Source: Candidatus Saccharimonadota bacterium
GTDB lineage: Bacteria; Bacteroidota; Bacteroidia; Cytophagales; Amoebophilaceae
Direction of reading: 5' to 3'
Assembly: GCF_965196625.1 (NCBI RefSeq)
Contig: NZ_OZ239769.1
Coordinates: forward strand, 420,001 to 452,000
Length of the DNA: 32,000 bases
Under the pieces are notes generated by a model. The model saw only the letters and a program-made list of their open reading frames with translations, had not been told where the DNA came from and searched no databases. Shown here one piece after another: positions 1,911-27,007 of this stretch. The translations under genes and the position numbers were made by a program. The stretch's first letter is position 1. Each line of letters begins with the position of its first letter.

Positions 1911-2082
1911 GCTTTATATAACATATAGAGATACAACTTTTAGCAAATCTACAGTGTACCGTAATAAAACAGCAACTCTAATATAGAATAGTTAGGGTCT
2001 ACCTATGTGAAAAACAAATACATACCTTTATATTTGAGATTGTCTATCTTTATGCCAAAAGGTAAAAGTAAAATTTATTTGT

Positions 2083-4848: not shown

Positions 4849-4857
4849 TGGCTTAAA

Positions 4858-5859: not shown

Positions 5860-5863
5860 ATCG

Positions 5864-6445
5864 TTATGGTCTTATGAGTCTATCCATAATGGCTGCAATC
5901 GCCTTTGTTACCTCATCTACACTTTGTGTGCCATCTATACGATGTAATTTGCCTTGGGCTTTATAATGGTTTAGAATAGGCCGCGTCTCTTGTTCGTATA
6001 TCTGCATACGTGTTTTAATTTTACACACATCTTGGTCATCAGGCCTTTTTTCAATGGTAGCACGATTTTTAAGCCGTTTTAGTAAAATCTCATTGGATAC
6101 ATCTAGAAAAATTACACCATTTATCTGTGCACCGCATTGTTTTAAAAAGTGATCTAAAAAGGTCACTTGTGGAATGGTTCTAGGAAAACCGTCAAACAAG
6201 AAAGATGCATCAGCAGGTTGTGCCTGCACCAGCTGGGTTACCAACTCAAAGGATAGGTGATCTGGCACCAATTGACCACTGTTAATGTATTTTTCAATCA
6301 ATACTTTATTGGTGCCATTTTCTGCCATTTGCTGACGCAGCAAAGCACCCAGCGCAATCGGTATAAAGCGGTATTTGTGAATCATTCGCTCGGCTTGTGT
6401 GCCTTTACCTGACCCAGGAGGGCCCACTAGAATCATATTAAACAT
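5864..6445 (-). CDS. adk: Adenylate kinase (short form)
   Basis: P-loop ILVGPPGSGKGTQ, FLFDGFPRT motif, length 193 aa. Lies 4 bp upstream of obg on the same strand. Confidence 0.95.
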   Translation of the reverse strand: MFNMILVGPPGSGKGTQAERMIHKYRFIPIALGALLRQQMAENGTNKVLIEKYINSGQLVPDHLSFELVTQLVQAQPADASFLFDGFPRTIPQVTFLDHFLKQCGAQINGVIFLDVSNEILLKRLKNRATIEKRPDDQDVCKIKTRMQIYEQETRPILNHYKAQGKLHRIDGTQSVDEVTKAIAAIMDRLIRP

Positions 6446-6550
6446 AAATGCGAAAGGATTTTTTTGAAAGCTAAAATGAATATAAAGTTAAGCATTTATA
6501 GGTTGCCTTTTGTGGGATCAGCATAACATACCAATCTGTTTGCAGGCCAG

Positions 6551-8881
6551 CTAGCCACTACACATTAAACACTCTTTTTCTGCTTCACCTGAAAAAGGCG
6601 TATCGACTTTTTCCTTCTTTTGTATGGTAAATTTAATGGCATCTGCTGCAGCCTTGGTACGTAGGTAATACATACCGGTTTTCAGCCCCTTTTTCCAAGC
6701 ATAAAAATGCATAGAGGTTAGCTTAGCCATAGTGGCGTCCTTAACGTAAAGATTCAGACTTTGGCTTTGACAAATATAAGGTGCGCGGTCTGCCGCCATA
6801 TCGATAATAGACTTCTGAGGAATTTCCCAGACCGTTCTATAAATATTTTTAATGTATTGCGGAATGGATGCAATCGCTTGAATGGAGCCATTGCCCATCA
6901 TCAGTTCTTCTTTTACCTGTTCATTCCAAAGACCAAGCTGGATGAGATCCTCTAATAGGTATTTGTTTACAACAATAAACTCTCCAGAAAGCACCCTTCG
7001 GGTGTAGATATTGGCGGTATAGGGTTCAAAGCACTCATTATTCCCTAGTATTTGAGAGGTAGAGGCGGTTGGCATTGGCGCAACCAATAGTGCATTTCTG
7101 ATACCATATTGAGCGATTTCGCTACGTAAATGATCCCAATCCCACCTTCCGGAAGAAGGGGTTACCCCCCACATGTCAAATTGAAGAATTCCCTTAGAGA
7201 TGGGTGACCCCGCGTAGCTTTCATATACGCCCTCTTTTTTCGCTAAATCTTTAGAAGCGGTTAATGCTGCAAAGTAAATGGTTTCAAAAATTTCTTGATT
7301 GAGTAGCCGTGCTTCTGGGCTATCAAAAACCAGTTTCATTTTAAGAAAAGCATCTGCTAATCCTTGAACCCCAATGCCAATAGGCCTGTGTCGTAAGTTA
7401 GAAGTACGTGCTTCCACTAAAGGATAGTAGTTCCGATCAATCACCTTATTAAGATTTTTGGCAATCAGGTAGGTTACAGCATATAACTTGGCATGATCAA
7501 AAGGTTGATTTGCATCTGCAAACATAGGCAGCGCAATAGAAGCAAGGTTGCAAACGGCCACTTCATCGGGTGCACTATATTCTATAATTTCTGTACATAA
7601 GTTACTAGATTTGATCGTACCCAAGTTTTTTTGATTGGACTTTTCGTTGGCTGCATCCTTATAGAGCATATAAGGCGTTCCCGTTTCTATTTGAGACTCC
7701 AAAATCGCAAACCAAAGCGTTTGTGCTTTAATAGAGGCACGTGCTTTACCTGCTTTTTCATAGGCTTTGTACTTTTGCTCAAATGTGGCTCCATAGCAGT
7801 CTGAAAGCCCTGGTGCTTCATTGGGGCAAAATAGCGACCACATCTCATCTGCCTCTACACGTTGCATAAATAAATCTGGAATCCACAGTCCATAGAAAAG
7901 ATCTCTAGCCCTTCTTTCTTCTTTGCCATGATTTTTCTTTAACTCTAAAAAGTCAAAGATGTCTGCATGCCAAGGTTCTAGATAGATGGCAAAACTACCC
8001 TTGCGTCTACCCCCTCCTTGATCTACGTAGCGGGCCGTCATATCAAAGTTCCGCAACATGGGCACAATGCCATTAGAGATGCCATTGGTACCTCGAATAT
8101 AGGAACCTGTAGTACGTACATTATGAATGCTTAATCCAATGCCTCCAGCAGATTGGGATATCTTTGCACATTGTGTAAGGGTATTGTAAATGCCTTCAAT
8201 GCTGTCTTCCTGCATCGTTAGTAAAAAGCAAGAAGAAAGTTGTGGTTTAGGTGTGCCTGCATTAAAAAGCGTAGGCGTGGCATGGGTAAACCATTTTTGA
8301 GACATTAATTCGTAGGTTTCAAGGGCGGCCTCTAGATTGTCACCATGAATACCTAGTGCTACACGCATCAACATATATTGAGGACGTTCCACAACCTTGC
8401 CGTGTATTTTAAGCAGATAAGAACGTTCTAATGTTTTAAAGCCAAAAAAATCATAGGCAAAGTCACGTTCATGCACAATCGCATGGTCTAACCTTGCTGC
8501 ATGCTTGGCAATAATATTGTAAACGTTTTGGTCGATAAGAGAAGCATTCTGCCCAGTTGCAGGATTTACGTAGGTATAGAGCCTTTTTATAGTACTAGAA
8601 AAAGATTTACTCGTTTCTTTATGTAGATTAGAGATTGCTATTCGCGCAGCTAAAATGGCATAATCTGGATGGTATACCGTCATCGTTGCCACTGTTTCTG
8701 CCGCCAAATTATCTATAGCCGAAGTAGTGACTCGATCATAAATGCCTTCAATAAGCTTTTTAACAATAGCAATCACATCGATATAATCCCTATTTAACCC
8801 ATAACAGAGTTTTTCTATCCTAGCGGTTATTTTATCGAATTTAACTGATTCTAAGCGTCCATCTCGTTTTACAACTAACAT
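6551..8881 (-). CDS. nrdA: Ribonucleoside-diphosphate reductase alpha subunit (class Ia, eukaryote-like R1)
   Basis: ATP-cone N-terminus [25 protein letters not shown], catalytic [11 protein letters not shown] block, C-terminal redox pair CLMCSG. 776 aa. Confidence 0.97.
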
Positions 8882-8928
8882 CTACTTTCTATAATTTTTT
8901 GATTATGAATCGATACACACTTTTTAGC

Positions 8929-9504
8929 TTACCTATTATGCCATTGATCACGCTGAATGGTATAGAGGAGCAGATCTATATATATTCCATGAACGTTTTC
9001 TTTTTCTAGTATGGTATCAGATTTTTTAAACCCTAAACGCATAGGTACATTTTGGCTTTTGGTATTTTCTATTCCACACCTAATGGCAATAAGCTTTAAG
9101 CCTAATTGTGTGAAGCCGATGTCAACAAGCTTAGCACAAGCGCATGTAATGAGCCCTAACCTTTGCAATGCTTCTCCTATCCAATAACCAATTTCAGCTT
9201 GACCGCTTGATACATCAATCGTATTAAAACTGATCATTCCAGAAATTTTTTCTTTGAAAAAGATACCAAAAACAAGCCTGCTGTTTTTATCTGCCTCATC
9301 ATTTGCGTTAGCGATAAAGTTTAAAGTATCATTCAGATTCATGCATGTATTGAACCAAGGCAACCATCTTTTCAAGTAGGATCTATTTTGCTCTGTTAGT
9401 AAGAATAGTGCTTCTGCATCGGATTGATCTAACTGTTTAATCCTTAAATCCTTACTTAAAGCAACTAATTTAGGAACCCTTGATAGATTTTTGATTGGAT
9501 GCAT
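8929..9504 (-). CDS. GNAT-family N-acetyltransferase (RimJ/RimL-like)
   Basis: Acetyltransferase-like core: QAEIGYWIGEALQRLGLITCACAKLVDIGFTQLGLKLIAIRCGIENTKSQNVPMRLGFKK. The start codon lies 2 bp after the nrdB stop. Confidence 0.75.
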   Translation of the reverse strand: MHPIKNLSRVPKLVALSKDLRIKQLDQSDAEALFLLTEQNRSYLKRWLPWFNTCMNLNDTLNFIANANDEADKNSRLVFGIFFKEKISGMISFNTIDVSSGQAEIGYWIGEALQRLGLITCACAKLVDIGFTQLGLKLIAIRCGIENTKSQNVPMRLGFKKSDTILEKENVHGIYIDLLLYTIQRDQWHNR

Positions 9505-9506
9505 CC

Positions 9507-10502
9507 TTAAAATTCTTCATCCAGCTTAAATCGCGCTTTGTCTTTATCTTGAGAGATGCTGTTCATAACTCCTGATTTTTGGTATTCGCCTACTCTTTTT
9601 TCAAAGAAGTTGGTTTTACCCTGTAGGGCAATCATTTCCATAAAATCAAATGGGTTGGTTACATGATAGATTTTTTTGCATCCTAGCTCCAATAGCAATC
9701 TATCCGCAACAAACTGAATATATTGGGTCATCAATGCTGCATTCATGCCAATCAATTTAACCGGTAATGCATCGGATACAAATTCACTTTCAATCGTTAC
9801 CGCATCTGCTATAATTTTAGCAACCTGTTCCTCTGGAAGTTTGTGTTTGATATGTTGATTATACAGCAAACAAGCAAAATCACAGTGTAGGCCTTCATCT
9901 CTGGAAATGAGCTCATTAGAAAAGGTTAGCCCTGGCATGAGTCCTCTTTTTTTAAGCCAAAAAATAGCACAAAAACTGCCAGAAAAGAAAATCCCTTCTA
10001 CCGCTGCAAAGGCAATTAACCGCTCTGCAAAGGAACCTTTACTAATCCAACGTAGTGCCCAGTCTGCTTTTTTGCCTACCCACTCAATCGTTTCTATAGC
10101 GTTGAATAACCTATGGCGCTCTTTGGGGTCTTTCACATAGGTATCGATCAGTAAGGAATACGCTTCAGAGTGGATGTTTTCAATAGCGATCTGGAATCCA
10201 TAAAAAAACTTAGCCTCTGTATACTGTACTTCATTGGCAAAGTTTTGAACCAAATTTTCATTCACAATACCATCACTAGCCGCAAAAAAAGCAAGTACAT
10301 GGGTAATAAAATGCTTTTCACCAGATGTTAAATTTTCCCAGTCTTTTATATCCTGACTAAGGTCAATCTCTTCTGCGGTCCAAAAACTGGCCTCTGCTTG
10401 CTTATAAAAGCTCCAAATATCGTGATGCTCAATAGGAAATAAAACAAACCTATTTTTATTCTCTTGCAAAAGAGGTTCATCTGCATAAGTATAGTTGTTC
10501 AT
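9507..10502 (-). CDS. nrdB: Ribonucleoside-diphosphate reductase beta subunit (R2)
   Basis: Di-iron/tyrosyl radical protein motifs: [43 protein letters not shown]. Acidic C-terminal tail ...FKLDEEF. Confidence 0.97.
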
Positions 10503-10872
10503 CTGATTGTTTCGTTTTTACGGGTTGGTAAGTGATATACAATTTAAGGCCATAAACTGATAGGTACAACAAACTTAGCTAAATGAAACCAAAGGTTCAA
10601 CACCAGCCATAATTTCTTATGCGATTTACTGCATTTGCATAAATGCATTTAATTGAAAATTAAACAAATAACCTAAACTGATATCTAGGCTCAATAATGA
10701 TTATGAATGGTTAAACATTTTGATGGTTCATAACAAATAATTAGATTTAAACCCTCTGTTTCCTTTTTCTTGGTTTAGGCCTAATGTACAATTTAGGTAT
10801 AAGATTAGGTATAAGAAACGGACCTTTAGGGGGTTGGTTTTTAATTTACTGGCATTTTAATATTGCATCATT

Positions 10873-11850
10873 ATGGTCGTTTCACAACTCTATTGCTACC
10901 TTTTTATCATCACTGGGTCGCTTATGTTTTTTTATTTTTTTCCAGTTGGTCTTTGGATTACGGCCCGTTTTTCTGGCGTAAAAGTTGGCCTATTTGAGTT
11001 GGTTTTTATGCGCATTCGTAAAGTTCCCCCTAGTGTTATTGTAGATGGGCTTATTGTAGCCACTAAAGCTGGTCTTAAGTTAACCCTCATGGAGGTTGAA
11101 ACCCACTATTTAGCCGGTGGTCATGTACCATCTGTTATTAAAGCCCTTATTTCTGCAGATAAAGCCAATATTAGCCTTTCTTTTAAACAGGCTACAGCTA
11201 TTGACTTAGCCGGTAGGGATGTATTTGAGGCAGTGCAAATTTCCGTTAATCCAAAAGTGATTAACACGCCCTCTGTAGCCGCTGTGGCTATGGATGGCAT
11301 TCAGCTCATTGCCCAAGCAAGGGTTACGGTTAGGGCCAATATTCAGCAGTTGGTAGGTGGTGCGGGAGAAGAAACCATTTTGGCCCGTGTAGGGGAGGGC
11401 ATTGTTACCTCGATTGGTTCTTCTGCAAGCCACAAAGAAGTATTGGCCAATCCTGATAAGATTTCACAATTGGTATTGAATAGAGGCTTGGATGCAGGCA
11501 CTGCTTTTCAGATACTTTCTATTGACATTGCGGATGTCAATGTAGGCGACAACATTGGTGCCAAGCTCCAGATTGACCAAGCCAATGCTGACTTACGCGT
11601 AGCAGATGCTAAGGCAGAGGAAAAGCGTGCTATGGCAGTCGCCTTAGAGCAAGAAATGAAGGCTAAATGTGAGGAGGCAAGGGCTAAGGTTATTCTAGCT
11701 GAAGCAGAAGTACCACAAGCTTTGGCATTGGCCTTAAAAAATGGCCAACTGGGTGTTATGGATTATTACCGGATGCAAAATATAAAAGCAGATACGGAAA
11801 TGCGTACAAGTGTAGCAGCAGATGACCTACTCCCCGGTAAAGGCAATTAG
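10873..11850 (+). CDS. floA: Flotillin-like protein FloA (SPFH domain, YqfA/UPF0365 family)
   Basis: Near-colinear match to the B. subtilis YqfA/FloA sequence as I remember it: [83 protein letters not shown]...NI.ADT.MR. Confidence 0.9.
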
Positions 11851-11865
11851 CTGGTAAAGCATTTT

Positions 11866-12558
11866 TTAGCTATAGATGTCGTTATTTTTGAGCAGATGTG
11901 GTCTTCTTTTTTTCGTTCTAGCCATTGCTTCTTGCTGCATCCACTGCTGAATGGCCTTGTGGTTGCCAGAGCACAATACATCTGGGACCTTTTTACCCTC
12001 AAAGTTGTAAGGCCGTGTATAAGCCGGTGGCGCTACGCACCCATCTTGAAAAGAGTCTGTCAGTGCAGAAAAAGCATCCGATATCACACCTGGTATAACC
12101 CGAGCCATAGCATCTGCTAAGATAAGTGCAGGCAGTTCGCCTCCGGAGAGGACATAATCTCCAATACTGATTTCCAGTGTAATAAAGTGTTCACGAATCC
12201 GTTCATCTATCCCTTTGTAATGGCCACATAATAGTATCAAATGTTGCTTGAGCGAACATTTGTTTACAAGATCTTGGTGCAATAGCTCACCATCTGGCGC
12301 CATATATATGACCTCATCATAGTTTCTTTCTTTTTGAAGTGCTCTAATGCAATTGGCAATTGGCTCCACCATTAACAGCATTCCAGCAGCTCCACCATAG
12401 GGTTGGTCATCAATTTTACCATGCCTATATGGCGTATAGTCGCGCAAATTATGTATATAAATTGAAAGCAGCTGCTGCTGCATGGCGCGCTGAAAGATAA
12501 AGTGTTTCAGTGGACCCTCAAACAACTGAGGACAACAAGTTATAATATCAAGCCGCAT
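11866..12558 (-). CDS. trmD: tRNA (guanine37-N1)-methyltransferase
   Basis: MRLDIITCCPQLFEGPL..., IYMAPDGELL, LLCGHYKGIDERI, EISIGDYVLSGGELPALILADAMARVIPGV. 230 aa. Confidence 0.95.
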   Translation of the reverse strand: MRLDIITCCPQLFEGPLKHFIFQRAMQQQLLSIYIHNLRDYTPYRHGKIDDQPYGGAAGMLLMVEPIANCIRALQKERNYDEVIYMAPDGELLHQDLVNKCSLKQHLILLCGHYKGIDERIREHFITLEISIGDYVLSGGELPALILADAMARVIPGVISDAFSALTDSFQDGCVAPPAYTRPYNFEGKKVPDVLCSGNHKAIQQWMQQEAMARTKKRRPHLLKNNDIYS

Positions 12559-12604
12559 CCAAGTAGGAAAAACACTTCGTTAAGGATCCACCTATAAAGA
12601 TATG

Positions 12605-12679
12605 TAGCGAGGAGGGGAATTGAACCCCCGACCTTCGGGTTATGAATCCGACGCTCTAAACCGCCTGAGCTACCTCGCC
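12605..12679 (-). tRNA. tRNA with CAU anticodon (Met, initiator or Ile2-lysidine type not resolved). No encoded CCA.
   Basis: Reverse complement folds as a cloverleaf: GGCGAGG TA GCTC AGGCGGTTTA GAGC G TCGGA TTCATAA CCCGA AGGTC GGGGG TTCAATT CCCCT CCTCGCT A. The anticodon loop is TT-CAT-AA. Confidence 0.9.
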
Positions 12680-12763
12680 ATATATTTCCTTTGTTAGGTT
12701 ATATAGCTATAGTACTTAAATTGTTGCTATATTTATGGTAAAGTTAGCCACAAATTTATAAAA

Positions 12764-14323
12764 ATGAACCATATTGCCATCAAAAAAATTGATAAACTGC
12801 TATTGCGTACCTTTATAACAACCTTTATCCTACTGCTTGCACTGGTATTATTTGTAATGGTTATACAAACTTTTTTTCTGTTATTTGCCAATATTGCAGG
12901 TAAAGGATTAGGGATCGATATTTACGCAAAGTTAATGTTTTACTTATCTTTAGATGCATTTCCTAGTGTTTTTCCTATTGCCATTCTAATAACTTCTTTG
13001 CTTGTTTTTGGTAATCTTTCTGAAAGCTTTGAATTAACCGCTATGCGTTCTGTAGGTTTTTCTCTACAGCGTACCTTACGTTTTCCTTTTATTTTTATTC
13101 TTTTTTTAAGTGGTGCCCTCTTCTATTTTCAGGATTATATTCATCCAAATAGCAAACAGAAAGTGTTTGCACTGATGCGTGATATCGGCAAAAAAAAAGC
13201 TGCTGTATTTATTCAAGAAGGTGTTATTTGTAATAACATACCAGGGTATAGCATTCGGGTAGATAAAAAGCTAAGCGATAATGAACATATGGAAGGGATT
13301 ATTGTTTATGATTATACTAAAAGGTATGGAACCGTTTCTATAACCACTGCGCAAAAAGGTAAGCTCTATACTACGCCAAATGAGGGAGCTTTGGTTATGG
13401 AGCTCACCAATGGATATAATTATGTAGAACCTTTACCTGATAAAAATAATGATGCCAAGTCTGATCAGAAGCCCTCTTTTTATAGAAATAGTTTTGCCAT
13501 GCAAAAGATAAGGATTAGCTTAGATGCACTTAAGATGGGCAAAACAAATGATAAATTTGCATATGAACCAAGGGCAAGCACGCGTCCACATCTAAAGAAA
13601 ATGATTCAAAAAAGATGGCAAGAAATTGTAGATCACGATAAACGCAGTAAAAATGTGCTGGCCAAGCAGACGATGCATTATCATGCCCCAGAAGCCTCTA
13701 CTGCGCAATTAGATGACCACCAGATGGAGGCATTGGCACCATCTATTCAAGAAACCACCCAAGATGCTGATTTTATATTATTTAGGAATCAGCTTATAGA
13801 AAAAAAAGTTGATGCTAGTATAGAACGTCATCTCCAACACGATCGCCATACCTTAGCAAAATGGGTTGTTCGGGATGCCTTGAGGCGTGTAAAAAAAATA
13901 AAAAATGGCTTAATAACCCACAAGGATCATAAAGCCTTATTTCATGAGGATTTAAATTCTGCCTTGTATGAAAAACAACATCGCTTTGCAGTAGCCATGC
14001 GGTGTGTCATTATGTTTTTGCTAGCAGCTCCCCTAGGTTGCCTTATTAGACGAGGTGGATTTGGGGTATCTGTATGCATTAGTTTCTTTTTTATACTCCT
14101 GGAGTATATTCTTTCTTTACTCGGGAAAGACTGGGCTATCTCCAATACCATTCCCACTTTTATAGGTGCTTGGCTTGCTAATTTTATATTGTTGCCTTTT
14201 TGTTGCTTCTTTTTGCTAAAAGCCCAGCAAGGCAGGGGATTATGTTCAACTAACTGGCACGTTTTTTATGGAAAAATTAAAAAAATCATTCAGCGAAACG
14301 TGCATACAACCACAAAAGTATAG
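12764..14323 (+). CDS. LptF/LptG-family (YjgP/YjgQ) permease with an enlarged central loop
   Basis: N-terminus IKKIDKLLLRTFITTFILLLALVLFVMVIQTFF is typical of YjgP/YjgQ permeases. There are multiple TM segments at both ends, around a roughly 250-aa hydrophilic middle. Confidence 0.75.
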   Translation: MNHIAIKKIDKLLLRTFITTFILLLALVLFVMVIQTFFLLFANIAGKGLGIDIYAKLMFYLSLDAFPSVFPIAILITSLLVFGNLSESFELTAMRSVGFSLQRTLRFPFIFILFLSGALFYFQDYIHPNSKQKVFALMRDIGKKKAAVFIQEGVICNNIPGYSIRVDKKLSDNEHMEGIIVYDYTKRYGTVSITTAQKGKLYTTPNEGALVMELTNGYNYVEPLPDKNNDAKSDQKPSFYRNSFAMQKIRISLDALKMGKTNDKFAYEPRASTRPHLKKMIQKRWQEIVDHDKRSKNVLAKQTMHYHAPEASTAQLDDHQMEALAPSIQETTQDADFILFRNQLIEKKVDASIERHLQHDRHTLAKWVVRDALRRVKKIKNGLITHKDHKALFHEDLNSALYEKQHRFAVAMRCVIMFLLAAPLGCLIRRGGFGVSVCISFFFILLEYILSLLGKDWAISNTIPTFIGAWLANFILLPFCCFFLLKAQQGRGLCSTNWHVFYGKIKKIIQRNVHTTTKV

Positions 14324-14774: not shown

Positions 14775-15047
14775 CTAACAATAAACATACAAAGCGCCCA
14801 AAAAATTAAGCATAGCTCCCCCTATTATTTTGCAAGTAGTGATTCGAAGTAAACTTACATTAGACTCGGTTATCCCATTCAAAAGGCTAAATGTCTTTAA
14901 GTTTGGCTCTGAAGAAAGGGAGGAAGATAACAAAACACCTGCTGCTTGCAGATATGCGGCACCAGCCATCACTATCAAAATAAAATAGCGCCACCCACCG
15001 CTCTCTCCAAACCGAATAGATATAGTGGATTGATTACAAATAGGCAA
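14775..15047 (-). CDS. Hypothetical small membrane protein. The first 23 codons lie inside a duplicated module.
   Basis: 90-aa ORF. The N-terminus MPICNQSTISIRFGESGGWRYFI is repeated at 16212..16144. No family recognised, so it may not be a real gene. Confidence 0.3.
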   Translation of the reverse strand: MPICNQSTISIRFGESGGWRYFILIVMAGAAYLQAAGVLLSSSLSSEPNLKTFSLLNGITESNVSLLRITTCKIIGGAMLNFLGALYVYC

Positions 15048-15201
15048 TAAAATGCACTATATTAAAAATAAGTTACCATTGTAGGAGGGTATATTTTTTT
15101 TCCTTAGGCTTTTGTATGATCAGAAAAAGAATAGTATATTCTCTTACTGATTTTTTATTTTTACTTTTAAAGCTAAGTCAATGATAAATTTTAAAAAAAA
15201 G
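14978..15201. repeat. ~224-bp direct repeat, copy 1 (divergent-promoter / 5'-end module; partner at 16144..16364)
   Basis: aataaaatagcgccacccaccgctctctc.aaaccgaatagatatagtggattgattacaaataggcaataaaatgcactatattaaaaataagttaccattgtaggagggtat... through atga.aaattttaaaaaaaag. Nearly identical in both copies. Confidence 0.9.
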
Positions 15202-15735
15202 CTATTCTCGACCTTATTAGTCTTTCAGGTATTATCTTCTTGTTCAGGTACAAAAAAGGAGCTAGGTATGAATGTATATAACGGAAGCTTGATATGTACT
15301 CCGGCTACAATAGTACCAGGAATATCCCCTAATATAACTCAGATGCAAACGGACCAAATGGACCAAGCACTAAAGAATCTTGATATAGGCAAACAAAAAT
15401 GGGAAAACTCCACATCTGATGATTCATCTAAAACGAGCACCAGATCCATAATCGTATATAACCACCATCTGTGTAAGCGACGGTCACATTCCCCAATTCG
15501 ACTTGGCAATAAAGTTGAATATGAATGTGCCTTTAATACGAACTCACTATTCCATCCGTACAACTATACGTGTACTGAGCATGAATTTCTTAATAAAACA
15601 AGATATATTCAATGGGAAAAGGTCTATCCAGCAGCATTACCAATGACGTATAGAAAGGAGCGTCAATGTCCAAATGCCTTTGGTAGACTTACCCCTCCTA
15701 TTGATAATTCAATAATTTGCGCAGGACTCTTCTAA
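15181..15735 (+). CDS. Hypothetical Cys-rich lipoprotein
   Basis: Signal peptide with lipobox (LLVFQVLSSC|SG). 184 aa with several Cys residues. No recognisable family. Confidence 0.55.
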   Translation: MINFKKKLFSTLLVFQVLSSCSGTKKELGMNVYNGSLICTPATIVPGISPNITQMQTDQMDQALKNLDIGKQKWENSTSDDSSKTSTRSIIVYNHHLCKRRSHSPIRLGNKVEYECAFNTNSLFHPYNYTCTEHEFLNKTRYIQWEKVYPAALPMTYRKERQCPNAFGRLTPPIDNSIICAGLF

Positions 15736-16143: not shown

Positions 16144-16364
16144 AATAAAATAGCGCCACCCACCGCTCTCTCTAAACCGAATAGATATAGTGGATTGATT
16201 ACAAATAGGCAATAAAATGCACTATATTAAAAATAAGTTACCATTGTAGGAGGGTATGTTTTTTTCCTTAGGCCCTTGTATGATTAGAAAAAGAATAGTA
16301 TATCCTCTTACTGATTTTTTATTTTAACTTTAAAACTAAACCAATGAAAAATTTTAAAAAAAAG
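16144..16364. repeat. ~221-bp direct repeat, copy 2 (partner at 14978..15201)
   Basis: Same module as copy 1. Here the plus-strand lipoprotein start is followed by only 16 codons (MKNFKKKKLKISYSEN*) before the dCTP-deaminase-like cassette begins. Confidence 0.9.
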
Positions 16365-16374
16365 AAACTTAAAA

Positions 16375-16905
16375 TCAGTTATTCAGAAAATTGAAATCTT
16401 TGAAAAATTTTGAACCTATCGGCCCTTTTGACTCTTGATATTGGCCATCATATAATTTTATATCTCCTTTAGGTTTCCAAAAAGAAACTTGCCCAATCCT
16501 CATCCAAGGATATATTCTCACTTGCAGAGTACTATATAATTGAAAGGTTACATTACCATGTGAGCCAATGTCAATTAAGTCTGCAGTAACATGTACAAAT
16601 AAACCTAACCTGGCAATACTAGATCTAGCATGAATAATGGGAACGTAATAATCACTACCAATTTCCTCAACACTGTGCCCTAACAAGAACTCACCTTGGT
16701 TAAGAACCATACCATCTTCTTCAATCTCAAAAATTTCATATGGGTTTTCTTTTTTAGGATCTATAACTGCATTAGTATACCTTAAAAACTTTTTTCCCAA
16801 AGTAAGGTCATAAGAATTTGTTGTGATATTCCTATAGTCAAAAGGATTAATATTTATTCGTTTGTTATTGAATTCTTCTCTAATAAATACTCCAGTTAAG
16901 ATCAT
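16375..16905 (-). CDS. dcd: dCTP deaminase-fold protein (176 aa) with Gln at the catalytic Glu position
   Basis: MILTG...INPFD...NSYDLTLGKKF...ARSSIARLGLFVHVTADLIDIGSHGNVTFQLYS...RIGQVSFWKP aligns by eye to the E. coli Dcd block [31 protein letters not shown]. The E of VLEF corresponds to Q here. Confidence 0.8.
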   Translation of the reverse strand: MILTGVFIREEFNNKRININPFDYRNITTNSYDLTLGKKFLRYTNAVIDPKKENPYEIFEIEEDGMVLNQGEFLLGHSVEEIGSDYYVPIIHARSSIARLGLFVHVTADLIDIGSHGNVTFQLYSTLQVRIYPWMRIGQVSFWKPKGDIKLYDGQYQESKGPIGSKFFKDFNFLNN

Positions 16906-16917
16906 TTTTTCTAAGTT

Positions 16918-17415
16918 TTACATTGTAAATGTTGAAGTTGTTGGATCATTATATGCTGAATACCCCCCCTTATAGTGATTAATTTTACCAAAATTTTCCC
17001 AAAATGATATTTGTCCAATAATCATATATGGATATAAAATAATAGGCTTTGTAGCTACTATTTCTAAAGTCCATTTATGTGATGCGCCTGTATGTCCCAG
17101 GTCTGCTGAAACTTGAATGAATAATCCATATCTTCCAACAGAACCACGTCCTACTAAACGCATTGCAAAATCACTACTACCTAAAACTTCATAAGTATGC
17201 CCCAGGTACATCGTGTGAGGCATAAGTTCATATCCTTCTTTTGGAATATCAATAAAATTAAATTTAGGAAATTCTGCTTCAGTTTCAGGAATACCAAGTT
17301 TCAGTCCTAATCTATAGCTATAGCTATTTGGATTTATTTGATTGAATACATACGGATCAATTGTGATTTTTCCTGTTTGTTGCATTTTATTTATTTCTAA
17401 ACCAGTCAGTATCAT
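16918..17415 (-). CDS. dcd: dCTP deaminase-fold protein (165 aa) that keeps the catalytic Glu but has a divergent IDPG motif
   Basis: MILTG...IDPY...NSYSYRLG...GRGSVGRYGLFIQVSADLGHTGASHKWTLEIVA...IIGQISFWEN. It matches the same fold block, including a WTLEI motif like that of short Bacteroidota Dcd proteins. Confidence 0.8.
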   Translation of the reverse strand: MILTGLEINKMQQTGKITIDPYVFNQINPNSYSYRLGLKLGIPETEAEFPKFNFIDIPKEGYELMPHTMYLGHTYEVLGSSDFAMRLVGRGSVGRYGLFIQVSADLGHTGASHKWTLEIVATKPIILYPYMIIGQISFWENFGKINHYKGGYSAYNDPTTSTFTM

Positions 17416-17744
17416 TTTTACTTTATTAACTTGAATTTGAAGCTAGAAGGTAAATATTGCGATAAAAAAGCTTTTTTGTATTTCAAACTTTTCAATTTAA
17501 AAATAAAATCTCCAACTATATGCATAGGCACTATTTTATACTTTATAAGTGGGTAGGGGTAATGCGTACCCAAAATGTCTGTATAGAGTCCTAGAATATA
17601 TTTTTTACTATCTATTTTGGGTATACGTCACATGCAGCTGTAGTAGCTAAGCACGTCTAATATGAAGCCCAATGCAGGCCATAAGCCTAGAACTACTTCC
17701 CAAAATGAAATAAGCCGACATCTTATCTTCTGGGCTAGATGATG

Positions 17745-18195
17745 ACTAATTTCATGATATTAAAGATTTAGTAAATAAAAATAAACCAGATAATTACGGA
17801 AAGACCGCATTGCATATTGCAGCCGAAACGGAAATAGAAATCTTATTAACAGACTCTTATATAATGTTGCTAACACAGGCGATCTAAATATTTTTAAAAT
17901 GATCTTGGCTAATTTTAGCGTGGGTAAAGATATAAATATAATTTCAATTACACAAAAAATAAATAAAGCAAGAAATACCGTACTGCATCTTTCAGCTCTT
18001 TAGGGAAGGGTAGATTTTTTAAAAGCGATCCTAGAAGTATTGATAAAGGTAAATGTTCATTCAAAAGAATGTATAAATATAATTTTAATGATGCCAAATA
18101 AAGGTAATCTTACGCTCGCTTGATACTGCAGCCATAAATGGTCATTTAGTTATTGTTAAATCTATCTTTGATAATGCAGATATATATGCTAATTT
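17745..18195 (+). pseudogene. Ankyrin-repeat gene remnant with in-frame stops and frameshifts
   Basis: Fragments in shifting frames: NYGKTALHIAAETEIEILL; NTGDLNIFKMILANFSVGKDINI...ARNTVLHLSAL*GRVDFLKAILEVL; LDTAAINGHLVIVKSIFDNADIYAN. Confidence 0.75.
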
Positions 18196-18400
18196 CGTCC
18201 TTATATACACTAACAACCTTGGATGGATCAAAGGCTGTGGAGGCATTCTCTAAAAACTGACGTTTCCAATTTTGAAGAGTTTTGCTAGTGACGCCATGTT
18301 TGGACGACAGCTCAACTAGCGTTAAATCTTCTTTTAGTAAGGCTAATACTATTTTAGTCTTTTCTTCCGAACTAAAATGCCTAATCTTTTTCCTTCCCAT
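18196..18400 (-). mobile_element. IS3-family transposase OrfA (HTH) fragment, truncated against the ankyrin remnant
   Basis: MGRKKIRHFSSEEKTKIVLALLKEDLTLVELSSKHGVTSKTLQNWKRQFLENASTAF matches the IS3/IS911-type OrfA helix-turn-helix pattern. The remainder of track ORF 18146..18400 is antisense to ankyrin sequence. Confidence 0.7.
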
Positions 18401-18756
18401 CTGATTAATTTATTTTATGACTTTAAAACTAAACCATACGGAAAATAAAGTAAAAGATTTTTGTCCTATTTTTTCAGTCCATTATAGTTAACAAAACAAA
18501 TGGTTTATTTGTTTTTTGTTAAAAAATCATTCAACTTTGTAAAAGTTTATTGTTGATTAAGAGACGATTTTATCTCTATAGTTTTTATTCAAAAAATTTT
18601 TTATGAAAAAGTATTTCGGTTTTTTACCGATTTTCGCATCCTGTTATGGGTTAGATCAGTCTAATAATATGTTGCCAAATTAATATGCTCATAGAAAAAT
18701 AAAAATCCAAAGCATCGCTTAAAAGAACTCAATATAAAAATATTAAAACGTTAAAA

Positions 18757-19018: not shown

Positions 19019-19468
19019 TTGGGCTTATATAGTCTAATGCTCATTGGATGTAGCAAACGTGGTGCTACTATCATGGGGCAGTTTGCTCCAAAAGAGTCTG
19101 TAGATAAGCAATCTAGTTACAGAAGATGTTGGAACTGGGTTAAGAAGAGTATTGTCAATGTCATAGCTAGTAGTAGTCCTGTAATTGTACGCTACAAAAT
19201 TCTCAACGATGATCTTAAACTTAATGCTTCATACAAGTATAAACAGGACTGTAAGCTTGGTCCTATTGAATGGAAGAAAGAAAAAAATAATGAGAAGCTG
19301 CACAAAAAAATCTGGAGCCTTGTTAAGGCTATCATCAACAAAGAATATAGGAAAAAAATAGATAGTTTCGTTATATTCAGTGTAAGAGAGGGTTGCAATA
19401 CAGTGGCATATGTGAGGGGGAAAGAGCCCTTCTGCTTGGCCGTAGAGCCTGTAAATTATTTTGTGTAA
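19019..19468 (+). CDS. Hypothetical protein (possible gene remnant) whose 3' end runs into the IS256 terminal repeat
   Basis: 149-aa ORF with a TTG start and a weak lipobox (MLIGCS). The last 8 codons and the stop (EPVNYFV*) are encoded by the IS end starting at 19445. Confidence 0.35.
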   Translation: MGLYSLMLIGCSKRGATIMGQFAPKESVDKQSSYRRCWNWVKKSIVNVIASSSPVIVRYKILNDDLKLNASYKYKQDCKLGPIEWKKEKNNEKLHKKIWSLVKAIINKEYRKKIDSFVIFSVREGCNTVAYVRGKEPFCLAVEPVNYFV

Positions 19469-20547
19469 GTGCCGTTTTTTAGGAGAATCTTCCCTCAAAT
19501 TCGATAGCGAATCGATTCAGAGCCGCTCTCCAATCATGTAAAGACATAGTCCACTTTTGTGATGCCTTCTGTATGGCTAAATATACTACTTTTAATGCAG
19601 ATTGGTCATTAGGAAAAATTTTACGGTTATTGATAGATTTTCTAATAACGCTATTGAGTGATTCAATGGCATTGGTCGTATAAATAATTTTTCGTATTTC
19701 ATCAGGATAGTCAAAAATAGTTATAATGTTGCTCCAATTTTTATGCCATGAACGACTAATAGCTGGATATTTTTTATCCCATTTTTCACTAAAAATAAGA
19801 AGTGCTTCTTCCGCTTGCTCAAGAGAAATAGCGCGATAAATAACTTTAAGATCCGATGCGACGGACTTCATGTCCTTATAGGGTACATAACGTAACGAAT
19901 TACGAATAAGATGAACAATGCATAACTGAATTTTGGTTTTTGGAAATACTGTATTAATAGCATCTGGAAATCCGGTTAATCCATCAACACAAGCAATAAA
20001 AATATCCTTAATGCCACGATTATTTAACTCAGTTAATACTGAGAGCCAAAATTTTGCACCTTCGGTTTCTGCTATCCACAAACCAAGTAATTCTTTTTGC
20101 CCTTGACAATTAATGGCTAATGCCAAATAAATTGATTTGTTGATTACGCGTTTATCTTGATGACACTTGATAACGATACAATCTAAATACAATATGGGAT
20201 ATACTGTTTCTAATGGACGATTCTGCCAAACAGTAATCTCCTCAATAACAGATTCAGTTACTTTCGAAATTAAACTGTGTGATACCTCTGTACCATACAG
20301 CTCTTTGAATGTATCTGAAATATCTCTGGTAGTCATCCCTCTAGCATAAAGAGCCAAAATTTGTTCATCAAATTCAGTGAAGCGAGTTTGCCCTTTGCGA
20401 ATGATTTGAGGATCGAACGTGCTGTTTCGGTCACGTGGCGTATTAATTTCCATTTCGCCAAAATCACCCTTTAATCGCTTAGGAGAGTAACCATTACGGC
20501 TATTTCCCGTGTTCCTGCCTTCTATAGCATGCTTTTCATAGCCAAGA
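19445..20547 (-). mobile_element. IS256-family insertion sequence, 5'-truncated copy (IS positions ~230..1332), inverted relative to the next copy
   Basis: It starts with the right-end repeat gagcctgtaaattattttgtgtaagtgc. The sequence mirrors 20777..21879. It stops abruptly at ...catagccaaga, next to the left end of the full copy. Confidence 0.9.
19479..20547 (-). pseudogene. IS256-family transposase lacking its N-terminal ~50 codons
   Basis: The 324-aa track ORF is identical to residues 81-404 of the intact transposase. The reading frame continues upstream to the truncation point without a start codon. Confidence 0.9.
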
Positions 20548-21879
20548 GAGTTTGTAAATAAAATTGTGTAAATGCTTATTATTAACTAATCTAACGGATT
20601 AAATCGTTAGTTATAAATGAGTCATAAGCAATGGAACAACAACAAATAAATATAGATCCAAATCTACTAAATGAATTGTCGAAGTCTATTAAGAGTGAAA
20701 AAGATTTAGCTATTCTCAGCAAGCAACTATTAAAAATCACGGTAGAACGTGCTATGGATGCAGAATTAGAGGATCATCTTGGCTATGAAAAGCATGCTAT
20801 AGAAGGCAGGAACACGGGAAATAGCCGTAATGGTTACTCTCCTAAGCGATTAAAGGGTGATTTTGGCGAAATGGAAATTAATACGCCACGTGACCGAAAC
20901 AGCACGTTCGATCCTCAAATCATTCGCAAAGGGCAAACTCGCTTCACTGAATTTGATGAACAAATTTTGGCTCTTTATGCTAGAGGGATGACTACCAGAG
21001 ATATTTCAGATACATTCAAAGAGCTGTATGGTACAGAGGTATCACACAGTTTAATTTCGAAAGTAACTGAATCTGTTATTGAGGAGATTACTGTTTGGCA
21101 GAATCGTCCATTAGAAACAGTATATCCCATATTGTATTTAGATTGTATCGTTATCAAGTGTCATCAAGATAAACGCGTAATCAACAAATCAATTTATTTG
21201 GCATTAGCCATTAATTGTCAAGGGCAAAAAGAATTACTTGGTTTGTGGATAGCAGAAACCGAAGGTGCAAAATTTTGGCTCTCAGTATTAACTGAGTTAA
21301 ATAATCGTGGCATTAAGGATATTTTTATTGCTTGTGTTGATGGATTAACCGGATTTCCAGATGCTATTAATACAGTATTTCCAAAAACCAAAATTCAGTT
21401 ATGCATTGTTCATCTTATTCGTAATTCGTTACGTTATGTACCCTATAAGGACATGAAGTCCGTCGCATCGGATCTTAAAGTTATTTATCGCGCTATTTCT
21501 CTTGAGCAAGCGGAAGAAGCACTTCTTATTTTTAGTGAAAAATGGGATAAAAAATATCCAGCTATTAGTCGTTCATGGCATAAAAATTGGAGCAACATTA
21601 TAACTATTTTTGACTATCCTGATGAAATACGAAAAATTATTTATACGACCAATGCCATTGAATCACTCAATAGCGTTATTAGAAAATCTATCAATAACCG
21701 TAAAATTTTTCCTAATGACCAATCTGCATTAAAAGTAGTATATTTAGCCATACAGAAGGCATCACAAAAGTGGACTATGTCTTTACATGATTGGAGAGCG
21801 GCTCTGAATCGATTCGCTATCGAATTTGAGGGAAGATTCTCCTAAAAAACGGCACTTACACAAAATAATTTACAGGCTC
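20548..21879 (+). mobile_element. IS256-family insertion sequence, full length (1332 bp), no target-site duplication
   Basis: IRL gagtttgtaaataaaattgtgtaaatgc (20548..20575) pairs with IRR gcacttacacaaaataatttacaggctc (21852..21879) at 22/28 positions. Flanks agccaaga / ttgctctt are not duplicated. Confidence 0.9.
20631..21845 (+). CDS. IS256-family (Mutator-type) transposase
   Basis: 404 aa. Characteristic block: YPILYLDCIVIKC...LALAINCQGQKELLGLWIAETEGAKFWLSVLTELNNRGIKDIFIACVDGLTGFPDAINTVFPKTKIQLCIVHLIRNS. Confidence 0.93.
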   Translation: MEQQQINIDPNLLNELSKSIKSEKDLAILSKQLLKITVERAMDAELEDHLGYEKHAIEGRNTGNSRNGYSPKRLKGDFGEMEINTPRDRNSTFDPQIIRKGQTRFTEFDEQILALYARGMTTRDISDTFKELYGTEVSHSLISKVTESVIEEITVWQNRPLETVYPILYLDCIVIKCHQDKRVINKSIYLALAINCQGQKELLGLWIAETEGAKFWLSVLTELNNRGIKDIFIACVDGLTGFPDAINTVFPKTKIQLCIVHLIRNSLRYVPYKDMKSVASDLKVIYRAISLEQAEEALLIFSEKWDKKYPAISRSWHKNWSNIITIFDYPDEIRKIIYTTNAIESLNSVIRKSINNRKIFPNDQSALKVVYLAIQKASQKWTMSLHDWRAALNRFAIEFEGRFS

Positions 21880-25013: not shown

Positions 25014-26780
25014 ATGAAAAAATTACCGATTGGGGTTAGTAACTTTCATAAGTTGGTATCTAACGATTACCTATTTTGTGATAAGACAGCCATGATTGCT
25101 GAATTATTGGGTAAAGGCGAAGAAGTTACCTTAATTGCTCGCCCTCGTCGCTGGGGGAAGACACTTAATATGTCTATGTTGCACCATTTTTTTTCAGCAG
25201 AAGTAAATGGAGTAAGTACAGAAGGCTTATTTGATGATTTAGCTATTGGTAAGGTAGATGTTGGTCAATACATTGCACAGCATCAAGGTAAGTACCCTGT
25301 CATTATGCTAAGCTTTAAGGATGTGAATGCAGATAGTTTTCAAGGGGCCTACAATGCGGTGTATGAGTTGATATTAGAGGTGTATAGCACATATGCCTAC
25401 TTATTGAATAGCGATGCAATTAATCAAATACAGTTAGGACAATTACATACTATCCTCAATAAGCAAGCCAATCAACAAGCATTAGAAAAATCTTTAAAGC
25501 TCCTTAGTCAATGCCTCTACCAACACCATGGTCAAAAGGTCTATATTCTCATAGATGAATACGATACGCCTCTCAACAAAGCTTACGGCAATAAGGAATA
25601 TTTGGATGCTATGGTCTCGTTTATGCGTAACCTATTTAGCGCTGCTTTAAAAGATAATAGCTATTTGGAAAGAGGTGTTTTAACGGGCATATTGCGTGTT
25701 TCTAAGGACAGCATGCTTTCTGGATTGAATAATCTAGAGACCTATACTTTTCTAGATGAAGAATATAGCGCACACTTTGGATTTAGTGAAACGGAAGTTT
25801 CCTATTTATTTGAAGAAAATAGTCTTAGTGTTGCTATAGAGGAAGTAAAAAGTTGGTACAATGGTTATAGGGTAGGAAATTTAGTCATGTATAACCCTTG
25901 GTCTATTATTTCTTGTATCAATAAATCAGGTCGTTTTGATGTCTATTGGGTCAATACGGGTAATAATAACTTAATCGAACAAAAGGTACTTACTGCTCAT
26001 TCGGAGATTAAAGAACAATTCGAACAGTTGATGCGAGGGGAGCCCTTAGCTATATCTATCAACAAACATCTTGCTTTTGATATCCTAGATAAAGATGATA
26101 CATCTTTCTGGAGTCTTTTATTATTTGCTGGCTATTTAAAATTTGACACTGTTGCCTTTAATGAATATAATGGATTACATGATTGTGAGTTGTTGATTCC
26201 TAATAAAGAAGTATATACGCTTTATAATCGTTTTTTTCAAGAATGGTTCATTCATCAGTTTGAGAGAAAGCGGCAATATGATTTTTTCTTGAAACATTTA
26301 GTAGCTGGCCAGGTTCCTGCTTTTGTAGAACAGCTTAGCTACTTTTTACGTAGAAGCGTGAGCTATTTTGACACACAAAAAAGTAATAAATCAGAAGGGT
26401 TTTACCATGGTCTTGTCTTAGGGATGTTAGCTAGTTTAGGTATCACCCATTATATACGCTCCAATAGAGAAAGTGGTTTGGGGCGTTATGATCTGTTATT
26501 AATACCTAAAAAAGAAGGTTCCAAGGCGCTGCTATTAGAATTTAAACAGGTTCGGAAAGAAGAAGAATTAGAAAGCGCTTCTAAACTGGCCTTATCACAA
26601 ATACAAGCACAAGCCTATCATACTGAAATACTACAATATCCTCATGTCCAGGAGGTAATAGAAGTTGGTATTGCCTTTTCTGGAAAATCGGTGTTAGCTG
26701 CTTATGCCACGTATAATCTAGTTGGTAAAAAATGTGGTTCATTGAGTTTAACCAGTAGATATGGCCAGGAAGAGTGGTAG
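25014..26780 (+). CDS. Predicted AAA-ATPase-like N-terminal domain plus C-terminal PD-(D/E)XK nuclease-family domain (Bacteroidota-expanded family of unknown function)
   Basis: MKKLPIGVSNFHKLVSNDYLFCDKT...ARPRRWGKTLNMSML (P-loop-like), VYILIDEYDTPL (Walker-B-like). The C-terminus ESGLGRYDLLLIPKK...ALLLEFKQV carries a D...E-x-K nuclease motif. 588 aa. Confidence 0.8.
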   Translation: MKKLPIGVSNFHKLVSNDYLFCDKTAMIAELLGKGEEVTLIARPRRWGKTLNMSMLHHFFSAEVNGVSTEGLFDDLAIGKVDVGQYIAQHQGKYPVIMLSFKDVNADSFQGAYNAVYELILEVYSTYAYLLNSDAINQIQLGQLHTILNKQANQQALEKSLKLLSQCLYQHHGQKVYILIDEYDTPLNKAYGNKEYLDAMVSFMRNLFSAALKDNSYLERGVLTGILRVSKDSMLSGLNNLETYTFLDEEYSAHFGFSETEVSYLFEENSLSVAIEEVKSWYNGYRVGNLVMYNPWSIISCINKSGRFDVYWVNTGNNNLIEQKVLTAHSEIKEQFEQLMRGEPLAISINKHLAFDILDKDDTSFWSLLLFAGYLKFDTVAFNEYNGLHDCELLIPNKEVYTLYNRFFQEWFIHQFERKRQYDFFLKHLVAGQVPAFVEQLSYFLRRSVSYFDTQKSNKSEGFYHGLVLGMLASLGITHYIRSNRESGLGRYDLLLIPKKEGSKALLLEFKQVRKEEELESASKLALSQIQAQAYHTEILQYPHVQEVIEVGIAFSGKSVLAAYATYNLVGKKCGSLSLTSRYGQEEW

Positions 26781-26999: not shown

Positions 27000-27007
27000 G
27001 TATACCA
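27000..27007. repeat. 8-bp target-site duplication GTATACCA, left copy
   Basis: Immediately precedes the IS left end at 27008. An identical octamer follows the IS right end. Confidence 0.85.

Follow-up and report, generated by a model that had tools for sequence, protein, structure and literature searches.

The Dcd/dUTPase superfamily is, in the textbook view, one of homotrimers with identical active sites; in this fold, motif 2 (R-S-S) comes from one chain and the motif-3 hairpin from the neighbouring chain. In this study, we analyzed two adjacent genes of this superfamily, referred to as DCD-A (A) and DCD-B (B), in a 32,000-nucleotide stretch of contig NZ_OZ239769.1 (positions 420,001 to 452,000 of the forward strand), which is called the window below. 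The window belongs to a Cardinium endosymbiont, an insect symbiont: its core proteins share 90%-identity clusters with many named Cardinium endosymbionts, and its ankyrin, RING and C2H2 proteins fit Cardinium biology. With a confidence somewhat above even, we regard A and B as the subunits of an old, co-evolving and mobile module of the superfamily, of which this Cardinium carries an acquired operon fragment.

The active sites of the dUTPase superfamily lie in the clefts between subunits, where the Asp of motif 3 catalyses the attack at the alpha-phosphate; changing this Asp to Asn abolishes hydrolysis while binding is kept (PMC4827122; PMC5519681). Residue A115 of the M. tuberculosis enzyme lies in the pyrimidine pocket, and swapping it for Phe blocks binding (PMC5519681). 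Covalently linked dUTPase pseudo-heterotrimers have shown that unlike subunits are tolerated and that the cleft sites may differ within one trimer (PMC4827122). Those constructs were artificial and made for the study of allostery, whereas the asymmetry of the A/B pair would be natural and genetically fixed.

The pair shares its fold, motif 2 (R/K-S-S..R) and hairpin architecture with the known Dcd enzymes and bifunctional dCTP deaminase-dUTPases (DCD-DUT), and B is also like Dcd in its C-terminal Y.GKYQ..GP..S motif. However, the known enzymes are homo-oligomers with the motif-3 Asp and the catalytic Glu in each chain, while here these residues are split over the paired paralogues A (His/Glu) and B (Asp/Gln or Asp/His). 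Likewise, the aromatic residue of the canonical IDPGW/F is mostly Ser or Cys in the pair families. The engineered E145Q variant of the M. jannaschii DCD-DUT (PDB 3gf0) carries the same Glu-to-Gln change in the same fold as natural B, but it is a laboratory mutant of a homotrimer, whereas the Gln or His of B is naturally fixed across phyla, always with an A-type partner.

Active-site residues of the two proteins

The two genes and their diagnostic residues are located as follows.

16918..17415, minus strand: DCD-A gene ("His/Glu type", 165 amino acids), upstream member of the pair
16906..16917, minus strand: 12-bp spacer from the A stop to the B start
16375..16905, minus strand: DCD-B gene ("Asp/Gln type", 176 amino acids), downstream member of the pair
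17143-17145, minus strand: Gly91 in motif 2 of A (GRGSVGR), where Ser is the family residue
17092-17094, minus strand: His108 in motif 3 of A (ADLGHTG)
17062-17064, minus strand: Glu118 of A, the Glu at the catalytic position (WTLEI)
16570-16572, minus strand: Asp112 in motif 3 of B (ADLIDIG); motif 2 of B is ARSSIAR
16540-16542, minus strand: Gln122 of B, at the catalytic Glu position
16441-16443, minus strand: Gln155 of B, which replaces the Lys of the C-terminal GKYQ motif in the window only

A sequence-only reading of this DNA had described two same-strand open reading frames of these lengths with a 12-bp gap, and both do lie on the minus strand. They are in one reading frame, with a stop codon and four codons between them; among relatives, a 4-bp overlap of the two genes is common instead. 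The fold signature that had been recognised in both proteins is confirmed by profile and structure comparisons. The Pfam model PF22769 (DCD, cut-off 27 bits) matched B with 126 bits (E 1.8e-36) and A with 80.5 bits (E 1.8e-22), and the AlphaFold models of the pair (predicted local distance difference test scores 83.5 and 86.4) had Dcd and DCD-DUT structures as their top Foldseek matches, with template modelling (TM) scores of 0.74-0.87 to DCD-DUT and E. coli Dcd. TM scores to dUTPases were below 0.5, and the trimeric dUTPase model PF00692 (cut-off 22) gave only 12.9 bits for B and no match for A. The two proteins are 34% identical to each other.

The catalytic Glu of the motif-3 hairpin is E138 in E. 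coli and E129 in M. tuberculosis. In hidden Markov model alignments to solved Dcd and DCD-DUT chains, VTFQL of B falls on ITLEL, which puts Gln122 at the catalytic Glu, and DLGHTG of A falls on FIDPG, which puts His108 at the Asp with Glu118 kept in place; posterior support is high across the active-site block. Neither A nor B has the motif-3 Asp and the catalytic Glu together in one chain. The placement made earlier by eye, in which the 176-residue protein keeps Ser, Arg and Asp but has Gln at the catalytic position, and the 165-residue protein keeps that Glu but has lost the ID.G Asp, is thus correct, and no Glu of B occupies the catalytic position. That reading had not singled out the first Ser of motif 2, which is also altered in A (Gly91), a window-specific change (1 of 80 loci, see below). 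The NCBIfam equivalog model TIGR02274 (dCTP_deam, cut-off 92.8 bits) gave 111.8 bits for B, above the cut-off, and 51.6 bits for A, below it. B therefore passes the equivalog score and is labelled a dCTP deaminase by this model despite Gln122, that is, without a Glu at the catalytic position.

Conservation of the gene pair

A and B each have hundreds of relatives with 55-77% identity in very different organisms. A scan of a genome collection holding one genome per species returned 80 loci, and the source genome of the window was not among them. The loci span Gamma- and Alphaproteobacteria, Streptomyces, Kitasatospora, Micromonospora, many Patescibacteria, Woese- and Nanoarchaeota, and also include Parachlamydia, Rickettsiales, Bdellovibrionales and Bacteroidota. 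Of the 80, 79 carry an A-type together with a B-type gene, side by side in 73 and with one intervening gene in 6, in the order A-B (65 loci) or B-A (14 loci). The window fits this pattern, with an A-type gene (GHT...E) adjoining a B-type gene (D...Q/H).

The active-site substitutions are fixed within the families. His108, Thr109 and Glu118 of A are each present in 80 of 80 sequences, and Ser91 in 78 of 80, the window sequence being the sole one with Gly. Position 122 of B is Gln in 67 sequences, His in 13 and Glu in none of the 80, while Ser95 and Arg99 are invariant and Asp112 and Lys155 are each kept in 78. His108 and Gln122 thus define their families and do not reflect local decay. Both families retain the phosphate-binding motif 2 and the small residue of the pyrimidine pocket, which is Ala104 in all 80 A sequences and Ala or Ser in B (position 108). 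At the third position after the motif-3 Asp, most B sequences have Ser or Cys and most A sequences Ser or Ala, and the C-terminal Y.GKYQ..GP..S tail is kept in B but lost in A.

Identity inside each family ranges from 42 to 100%. As A is nearer to B than to canonical Dcd, and as family identities go down to 42-45%, the duplication is an old one that preceded the spread of the pair. This survey disposes of the possibility that the pair is a recent local duplicate. When the pairwise identities among A sequences are set against those among B sequences, the two matrices correlate (r = 0.80, as compared with 0.09 for the best of 500 label permutations), and the two genes have travelled together since the duplication.

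Multi-domain chains and the geometry of the sites

An exhaustive profile search revealed natural proteins in which several DCD domains are joined in one chain. P0336 has three such domains, scoring as B-like, B-like and A-like. P0333 joins a domain with motif 2 and a dead hairpin to a domain with a dead motif 2 and a GHT..E hairpin. In the three-domain chains P0300 and P0306, domain 1 alone has kept the Asp/Glu hairpin, and domain 3 alone has R-S-S. Such chains are what the sharing of sites between unlike subunits would lead one to expect. In P0341, a B-type domain is fused to an S-adenosylmethionine (SAM) methyltransferase, with A-type and kinase-like genes just upstream; this fusion ties B to the methyltransferase that is found at most loci (see below).

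P0300 and P0306 are natural covalent pseudo-trimers, for which one active site per trimer is predicted. P0320, P0326 and P0321 are actinobacterial-looking proteins of about 820 amino acids with a B-type (Asp...Gln) DCD domain, and their fused region resembles pyruvate phosphate dikinase and other phosphoenolpyruvate-utilising phosphotransferases when the sequence is read by eye. P0350 and P0352 combine a canonical-type DCD domain with a region that looks, again by eye, like a haloacid dehalogenase-type hydrolase. Apparent in-frame A-B fusions in some Actinobacteria were rejected: tblastn puts the two genes in different frames, and the fusions are artefacts of crude calling of open reading frames in GC-rich DNA.

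The losses in A and B had been read as complementary, pointing to an obligate heteromer. This proposal stands in part. The motif-3 Asp and the deaminase Glu are 10 residues apart on one hairpin, so no A/B interface can contain both, and the losses therefore do not complement each other in a way that would rebuild a canonical site. On the other hand, the heteromer itself gains from the adjacency of the genes, their co-variation and the chain of mixed type. Since motif 2 and motif 3 come from neighbouring chains, a mixed assembly would have two types of site. As the small pyrimidine-pocket residue is kept in both families, binding of a pyrimidine nucleotide has probably been preserved at the hairpins of A and B alike. 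Loss of the aromatic residue after the Asp might relax discrimination against ribonucleotides, if this residue is analogous to the sugar-gating Tyr of dUTPases, which we offer as a lead only.

We propose that A and B would form mixed trimers or hexamers, in which: deamination of a cytosine nucleotide could take place at the A-hairpin site (His and Glu); the B-hairpin site (Asp and Gln), unable to deaminate, would retain the residue for alpha-phosphate attack; and the two together would act as a split bifunctional dCTP deaminase-dUTPase or a related nucleotide-tailoring enzyme. Such an enzyme would yield a pyrimidine nucleoside monophosphate, or else carry out a nucleotidyl transfer, and so feed specialised nucleotide or aminoacyl-nucleotide metabolites.

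Alternatively, A and B might be separate homotrimers that carry out sequential steps of one pathway, lying side by side for co-regulation and forming no mixed oligomer. Every solved relative is a homotrimer or homohexamer, each of the two proteins has its own motif 2 and its own hairpin so that homomeric sites are geometrically possible, and adjacency and co-variation are expected of any two enzymes of one transferred operon. Nevertheless, we consider this explanation rather unlikely, as P0336 and P0333 mix the A and B types within one polypeptide, and several chains keep motif 2 and the hairpin in different domains, which is sensible only if unlike subunits share their sites. In addition, the frequent 4-bp gene overlaps suggest coupled translation, and A has lost from its C-terminal tail the GKYQ motif that B keeps. 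The heteromer is our preferred reading, given the adjacency in 79 of 80 loci, the co-variation (r = 0.80) and the natural B-like/B-like/A-like chain.

Genomic context of related pairs

The neighbourhoods of the 80 loci were compiled from annotated contigs and by clustering of open reading frames, and genes within 8 kb of 79 pairs were counted.

Truncated alanyl-tRNA synthetase (AlaRS)-like gene (about 354 amino acids, PF01411; aligns to the first ~140 residues of AlaRS): 45 loci
Divergent lysyl-tRNA synthetase (LysRS)/EpmA-like gene: 20 loci
AlaRS-like or LysRS-like gene, either: 63 loci
SAM methyltransferase: at least 52 loci
S66 peptidase: 37 loci
Ornithine/diaminopimelate-type decarboxylase: 19 loci
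ATP-grasp ligase: 12 loci

Metallophosphoesterases, NUDIX hydrolases, radical SAM enzymes, cytochromes P450 and exporters were also seen near the pairs. The composition of the clusters differs from one organism to another: a Streptomyces plasmid has the pair beside a MurA-like enolpyruvyl transferase, a metallophosphoesterase and a GT4 glycosyltransferase; a Rhizobium etli plasmid has it with a methyltransferase, a NUDIX hydrolase and a metallophosphoesterase; and a Staskawiczbacteria metagenome-assembled genome has it with a radical SAM enzyme, a PIG-L deacetylase, a 5'-nucleotidase and glycosyltransferases. These settings are reminiscent of clusters for nucleoside-type products. The shuffled gene order, together with an association that lasts across phyla, indicates functional coupling to specialised nucleotide metabolism in which the pair is the constant part.

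The commonest methyltransferase is a homologue of MccD, and its best matches among 72,556 plasmids are the E. coli microcin C (mcc) operons. When the E. coli mcc proteins were compared with those of the related loci, MccD and the methyltransferase were 31% identical (E 5e-35), MccF and the S66 peptidase 36% (E 5e-51), and the N-terminal half of MccE and the decarboxylase 26% (E 2e-14). Thus, many related loci have homologues of MccD, of half of MccE and of MccF, and often a major facilitator superfamily exporter, in common with the E. coli plasmid operon (MccB, C, D, E, F). Unlike that operon, they have the DCD pair and a truncated aminoacyl-tRNA synthetase (aaRS)-like gene and lack MccB (ThiF-like): no MccB homologue was found in any of the 80 loci or in the window, a precursor peptide gene not having been looked for. 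The window itself differs further from the mcc operon in having no partner genes, and the subgroup nearest to the Cardinium pair has another type of methyltransferase and a metallophosphoesterase. Our literature search found no description of paired DCD-like genes with aaRS-like or mcc-like clusters and no link between such pairs and natural products or Cardinium, although this is not proof of absence.

These likenesses raise the possibility, which we put forward tentatively and regard as unlikely, that the A/B heteromer is the nucleotide-handling core of a ribosome-independent, microcin C-like pathway, in place of MccB. In such a pathway, one type of site would deaminate or select a cytosine nucleotide, and the other would release or transfer a nucleoside monophosphate by a dUTPase-type attack at the alpha-phosphate; the truncated aaRS-like ligase would join the nucleotide product to an amino acid; and MccD- and MccE-like enzymes would decorate the conjugate, with self-immunity given by the MccF-like peptidases. 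Full-length aaRS genes with other specificities (class I LysRS, monomeric phenylalanyl-tRNA synthetase-like and leucyl-tRNA synthetase) are also unusually frequent beside pair clusters (L073, L080, L008, L032, L075 and others). This would fit self-resistance to an aaRS inhibitor, but might just as well be ordinary synteny in small genomes.

An anti-phage role by depletion of dCTP had been considered as plausible as housekeeping in the sequence-only reading. Defence proteins that deaminate dCTP are known, and the pair resembles them in its proposed substrate class (dCTP) and in being horizontally mobile and patchily distributed. However, the fold of those known in defence is another one, zinc-dependent and fused to a kinase-like domain, and a scan of A and B with PADLOC-DB 2.0.0 matched no family. 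Viral contigs held no relatives of the pair, and phage genomes held only distant canonical Dcd. Moreover, the conserved neighbours of related pairs are methyltransferases, aaRS-like ligases, peptidases, decarboxylases and exporters, which are biosynthetic in character rather than defence genes, and an obligate intracellular symbiont has little exposure to phages. We therefore regard a defence function as very improbable.

The pair might instead serve housekeeping, supplying dUMP or removing dUTP or dCTP for Cardinium DNA synthesis and so complementing ribonucleotide reductase. The NrdA/NrdB genes lie in the same window, 6 kb away, both open reading frames of the pair are intact, the nearest structural relatives are bifunctional dCTP deaminase-dUTPases, and in one Rickettsiales metagenome-assembled genome an orphan pair lies 2 kb from thyA-folA. 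We nonetheless consider this quite improbable. A Saccharibacteria genome has the pair in a cluster of the kind described above and, 8 kb away, a canonical Dcd (GDVGF...WTLEL) beside folA-thyA, so the pair there is not the housekeeping enzyme. No other Cardinium genome in the collection has the pair, either at 90% identity or more or among the top matches, which argues against a part in the core metabolism of the genus; related pairs are found mostly in specialised clusters; and the window copy has changes at two phosphate-binding residues. Housekeeping is thus unlikely as the ancestral role but possible for the orphan copy in Cardinium. The thyA-folA linkage was itself rejected as general support, as it occurs at only 2 of 80 loci, in one of which it belongs to the separate canonical Dcd.

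The Cardinium locus

The features around the pair are as follows.

12764..14323, plus strand: LptF/LptG permease gene, the last gene syntenic with Cardinium CP022339 (similarity stops at 14298)
14979..15201, plus strand: repeat copy 1 (223 bp), leading into an intact 184-amino-acid lipoprotein-like open reading frame (15181-15735)
16144..16364, plus strand: repeat copy 2 (about 221 bp; upstream region plus the first 7 lipoprotein codons), 94% identical to copy 1
16344..16394, plus strand: 16-codon remnant open reading frame, MKNFKKKKLKISYSEN and a stop codon, starting like the lipoprotein gene (MINFKKK...) and overlapping the 3' end of B
17416..18145, no strand assigned: AT-rich non-coding stretch (730 bp, GC 0.31) upstream of A
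18146..18400, minus strand: IS3-type transposase OrfA fragment (84 amino acids, HTH_Tnp_1), the upstream border
20547-21879, no strand assigned: IS256-family insertion sequence (IS) element, with a truncated inverted copy at 19444-20547; both are 100% identical to 27007-28339

Similarity to Cardinium CP022339 covers positions 1983-14298 of the window in several rearranged blocks and ends at the close of the LptF/G gene. Past this gene follow, in order, the repeat, the lipoprotein-like gene, the second repeat, B, A, the non-coding stretch, the IS3 fragment and the IS256 copies. The 90% clusters of A and B contain this genome alone, and their next relatives, 69-77% identical, come from metagenomes. 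A and B have GC contents of 0.18 and 0.25, respectively, at the third positions of their codons (GC3), as compared with 0.30-0.40 for core genes, in agreement with the earlier impression of a more AT-rich cassette. The pair is thus foreign to Cardinium: it is confined to this strain, is located past the point where synteny breaks off, has IS elements at its flanks and shows a low GC3.

The closest relative, L004 (GC 0.44), carries A, B, an AlaRS-like gene, a methyltransferase and a metallophosphoesterase on one strand. At the DNA level, the window resembles L004 only from 16421 to 17420 (72%), and the 730-bp stretch upstream of A has no similarity to the upstream region of L004. A scan for sigma-70 promoters upstream of A gave fewer sites than shuffled sequences and no assignable promoter, this promoter type being ill-suited to Bacteroidota. 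Searches of the 32-kb window by tblastn and blastx revealed no remnants of the partner genes (methyltransferase, AlaRS-like, metallophosphoesterase, ATP-grasp, decarboxylase, S66 peptidase and kinase), and homologues of MccD, MccE and MccF are absent from it.

Repeat copy 2 ends 10 bp short of the B stop codon and marks the downstream junction of the acquired DNA. Both the duplicated module and the loss of all but 16 codons of a lipoprotein gene, as described in the sequence-only reading, are upheld by these coordinates, and the proposed insertion of a cassette can be sharpened: we infer that the pair is a strain-specific operon fragment, acquired horizontally by one Cardinium lineage and cut off 10 bp after B at the local repeat. 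In the simplest reading, recombination brought a foreign operon, or just the first two genes of one, into a paralogue of the lipoprotein gene, of which the stub at 16344-16394 is the remainder.

The frames of A and B are intact, and their departures from positions conserved at 90% or more (3 in A, 2 in B) are within the range of other members. Two of these departures, S91G in motif 2 of A and K155Q in the GKYQ tail of B, are each unique among the 80 loci and each at a phosphate-contacting position. These two changes could represent early decay, or adaptation to working without the partner enzymes.

It is an appreciable, if minor, possibility that the pair is what remains, without function, of a transferred biosynthetic operon, undisrupted but no longer selected in Cardinium. 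Only the first two genes of an L004-type operon are present, a repeat junction terminates the DNA, IS elements and pseudogenes abound nearby, and the two unusual substitutions fall on phosphate-contacting residues. Against this, both frames are complete with no excess of departures from conserved positions, and orphan pairs exist in other reduced genomes.

Other observations on the window concern its plasticity and gene content. Three IS256 copies (Mutator-type transposase) are 100% identical, and the truncated one abuts a full one, which indicates very recent transposition or recombination. In CP022339 (L091), the Cardinium of Sogatella furcifera, LptD is on the other side of the Obg-to-LptF/G block as compared with the window, and two HTH_8 genes that follow LptF/G there are absent in the window, which marks the downstream region as a rearrangement hotspot. 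A 28-nucleotide AT-rich motif, TTTTTATTTTAACTTTAAAACTAAACCA, lies directly upstream of the lipoprotein start (15153-15180) and of the stub (16316-16343); it recurs with 86% identity at 18409-18436 beside the IS3 OrfA fragment and may be a shared promoter or leader. Three minus-strand genes encode eukaryote-like proteins: an ankyrin-repeat protein with a C-terminal RING finger (30078-30728), a C2H2 zinc-finger protein (28501-29598) and a second ankyrin-repeat protein (637-1599). The first two genes have a very low GC3 (0.21), like the pair. A protein of 588 amino acids with AAA-ATPase_like and PD-(D/E)XK (PDDEXK_9) domains is encoded at 25014-26780, and the last 371 bp of its gene (26410-26780) recur with 82% identity at 31152-31519, inside an open reading frame of 128 amino acids.

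Between nrdA and nrdB, at 8929-9504 on the minus strand, lies a gene for a RimL/RimJ-type Gcn5-related N-acetyltransferase (Acetyltransf_3), in an arrangement that is kept in CP022339. Enzymes of the RimL type, such as E. coli RimL and the C-terminal half of MccE, detoxify aminoacyl-nucleotides. Any link between this acetyltransferase and the DCD pair is probably coincidental.

Discussion

The division of active-site residues seen in the window is a general feature of a widespread gene pair, and apparently one that has not been described before. Several points weigh against the reading of A and B as a heteromeric module with a part in specialised metabolism. The heteromer and its division of labour are both things that we infer, and P0336, the chain that mixes B-like and A-like domains, is known from a single 2-kb metagenomic contig. 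The partner genes vary by lineage, in the type of methyltransferase, in the AlaRS-like or LysRS-like gene and, at some loci, in the presence of glycosyltransferases or radical SAM enzymes, so the clusters clearly do not all lead to a single end product. About five loci hold the pair without recognised partners, and the Rickettsiales pair has thyA-folA close by, so a stand-alone metabolic role is possible. As for the Cardinium copy, intact open reading frames without excess changes fit function and recent arrival alike, and other parts of the genome may hold partner genes, a canonical dcd or a canonical dut.

If a paralogue pair does divide the catalytic residues over its subunits, it would be, to our knowledge, the first native heteromeric enzyme of this fold, and it would explain thousands of genes that are annotated as dCTP deaminase but lack the catalytic Glu. 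The combination of MccD-, MccE- and MccF-like genes with truncated aaRS-like genes, but no MccB, points to unexplored nucleotide-derived metabolites in bacteria of the Candidate Phyla Radiation (CPR), in DPANN archaea and in host-associated bacteria. Culturable strains of Serratia, Erwinia, Pseudomonas viridiflava, Vibrio campbellii and Streptomyces make direct tests possible. Should the microcin C-like pathway be real, it would represent an undescribed class of aminoacyl-nucleotide toxins, distributed over CPR bacteria, DPANN archaea, actinomycetes, Alphaproteobacteria of the gut and Enterobacterales associated with plants, and a Cardinium symbiont would have captured part of such a pathway.

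For Cardinium itself, the pair shows cleanly that a symbiont with a reduced genome has gained genes recently; there, it may act on the pyrimidine pool without partners or may be a remnant that is being lost.

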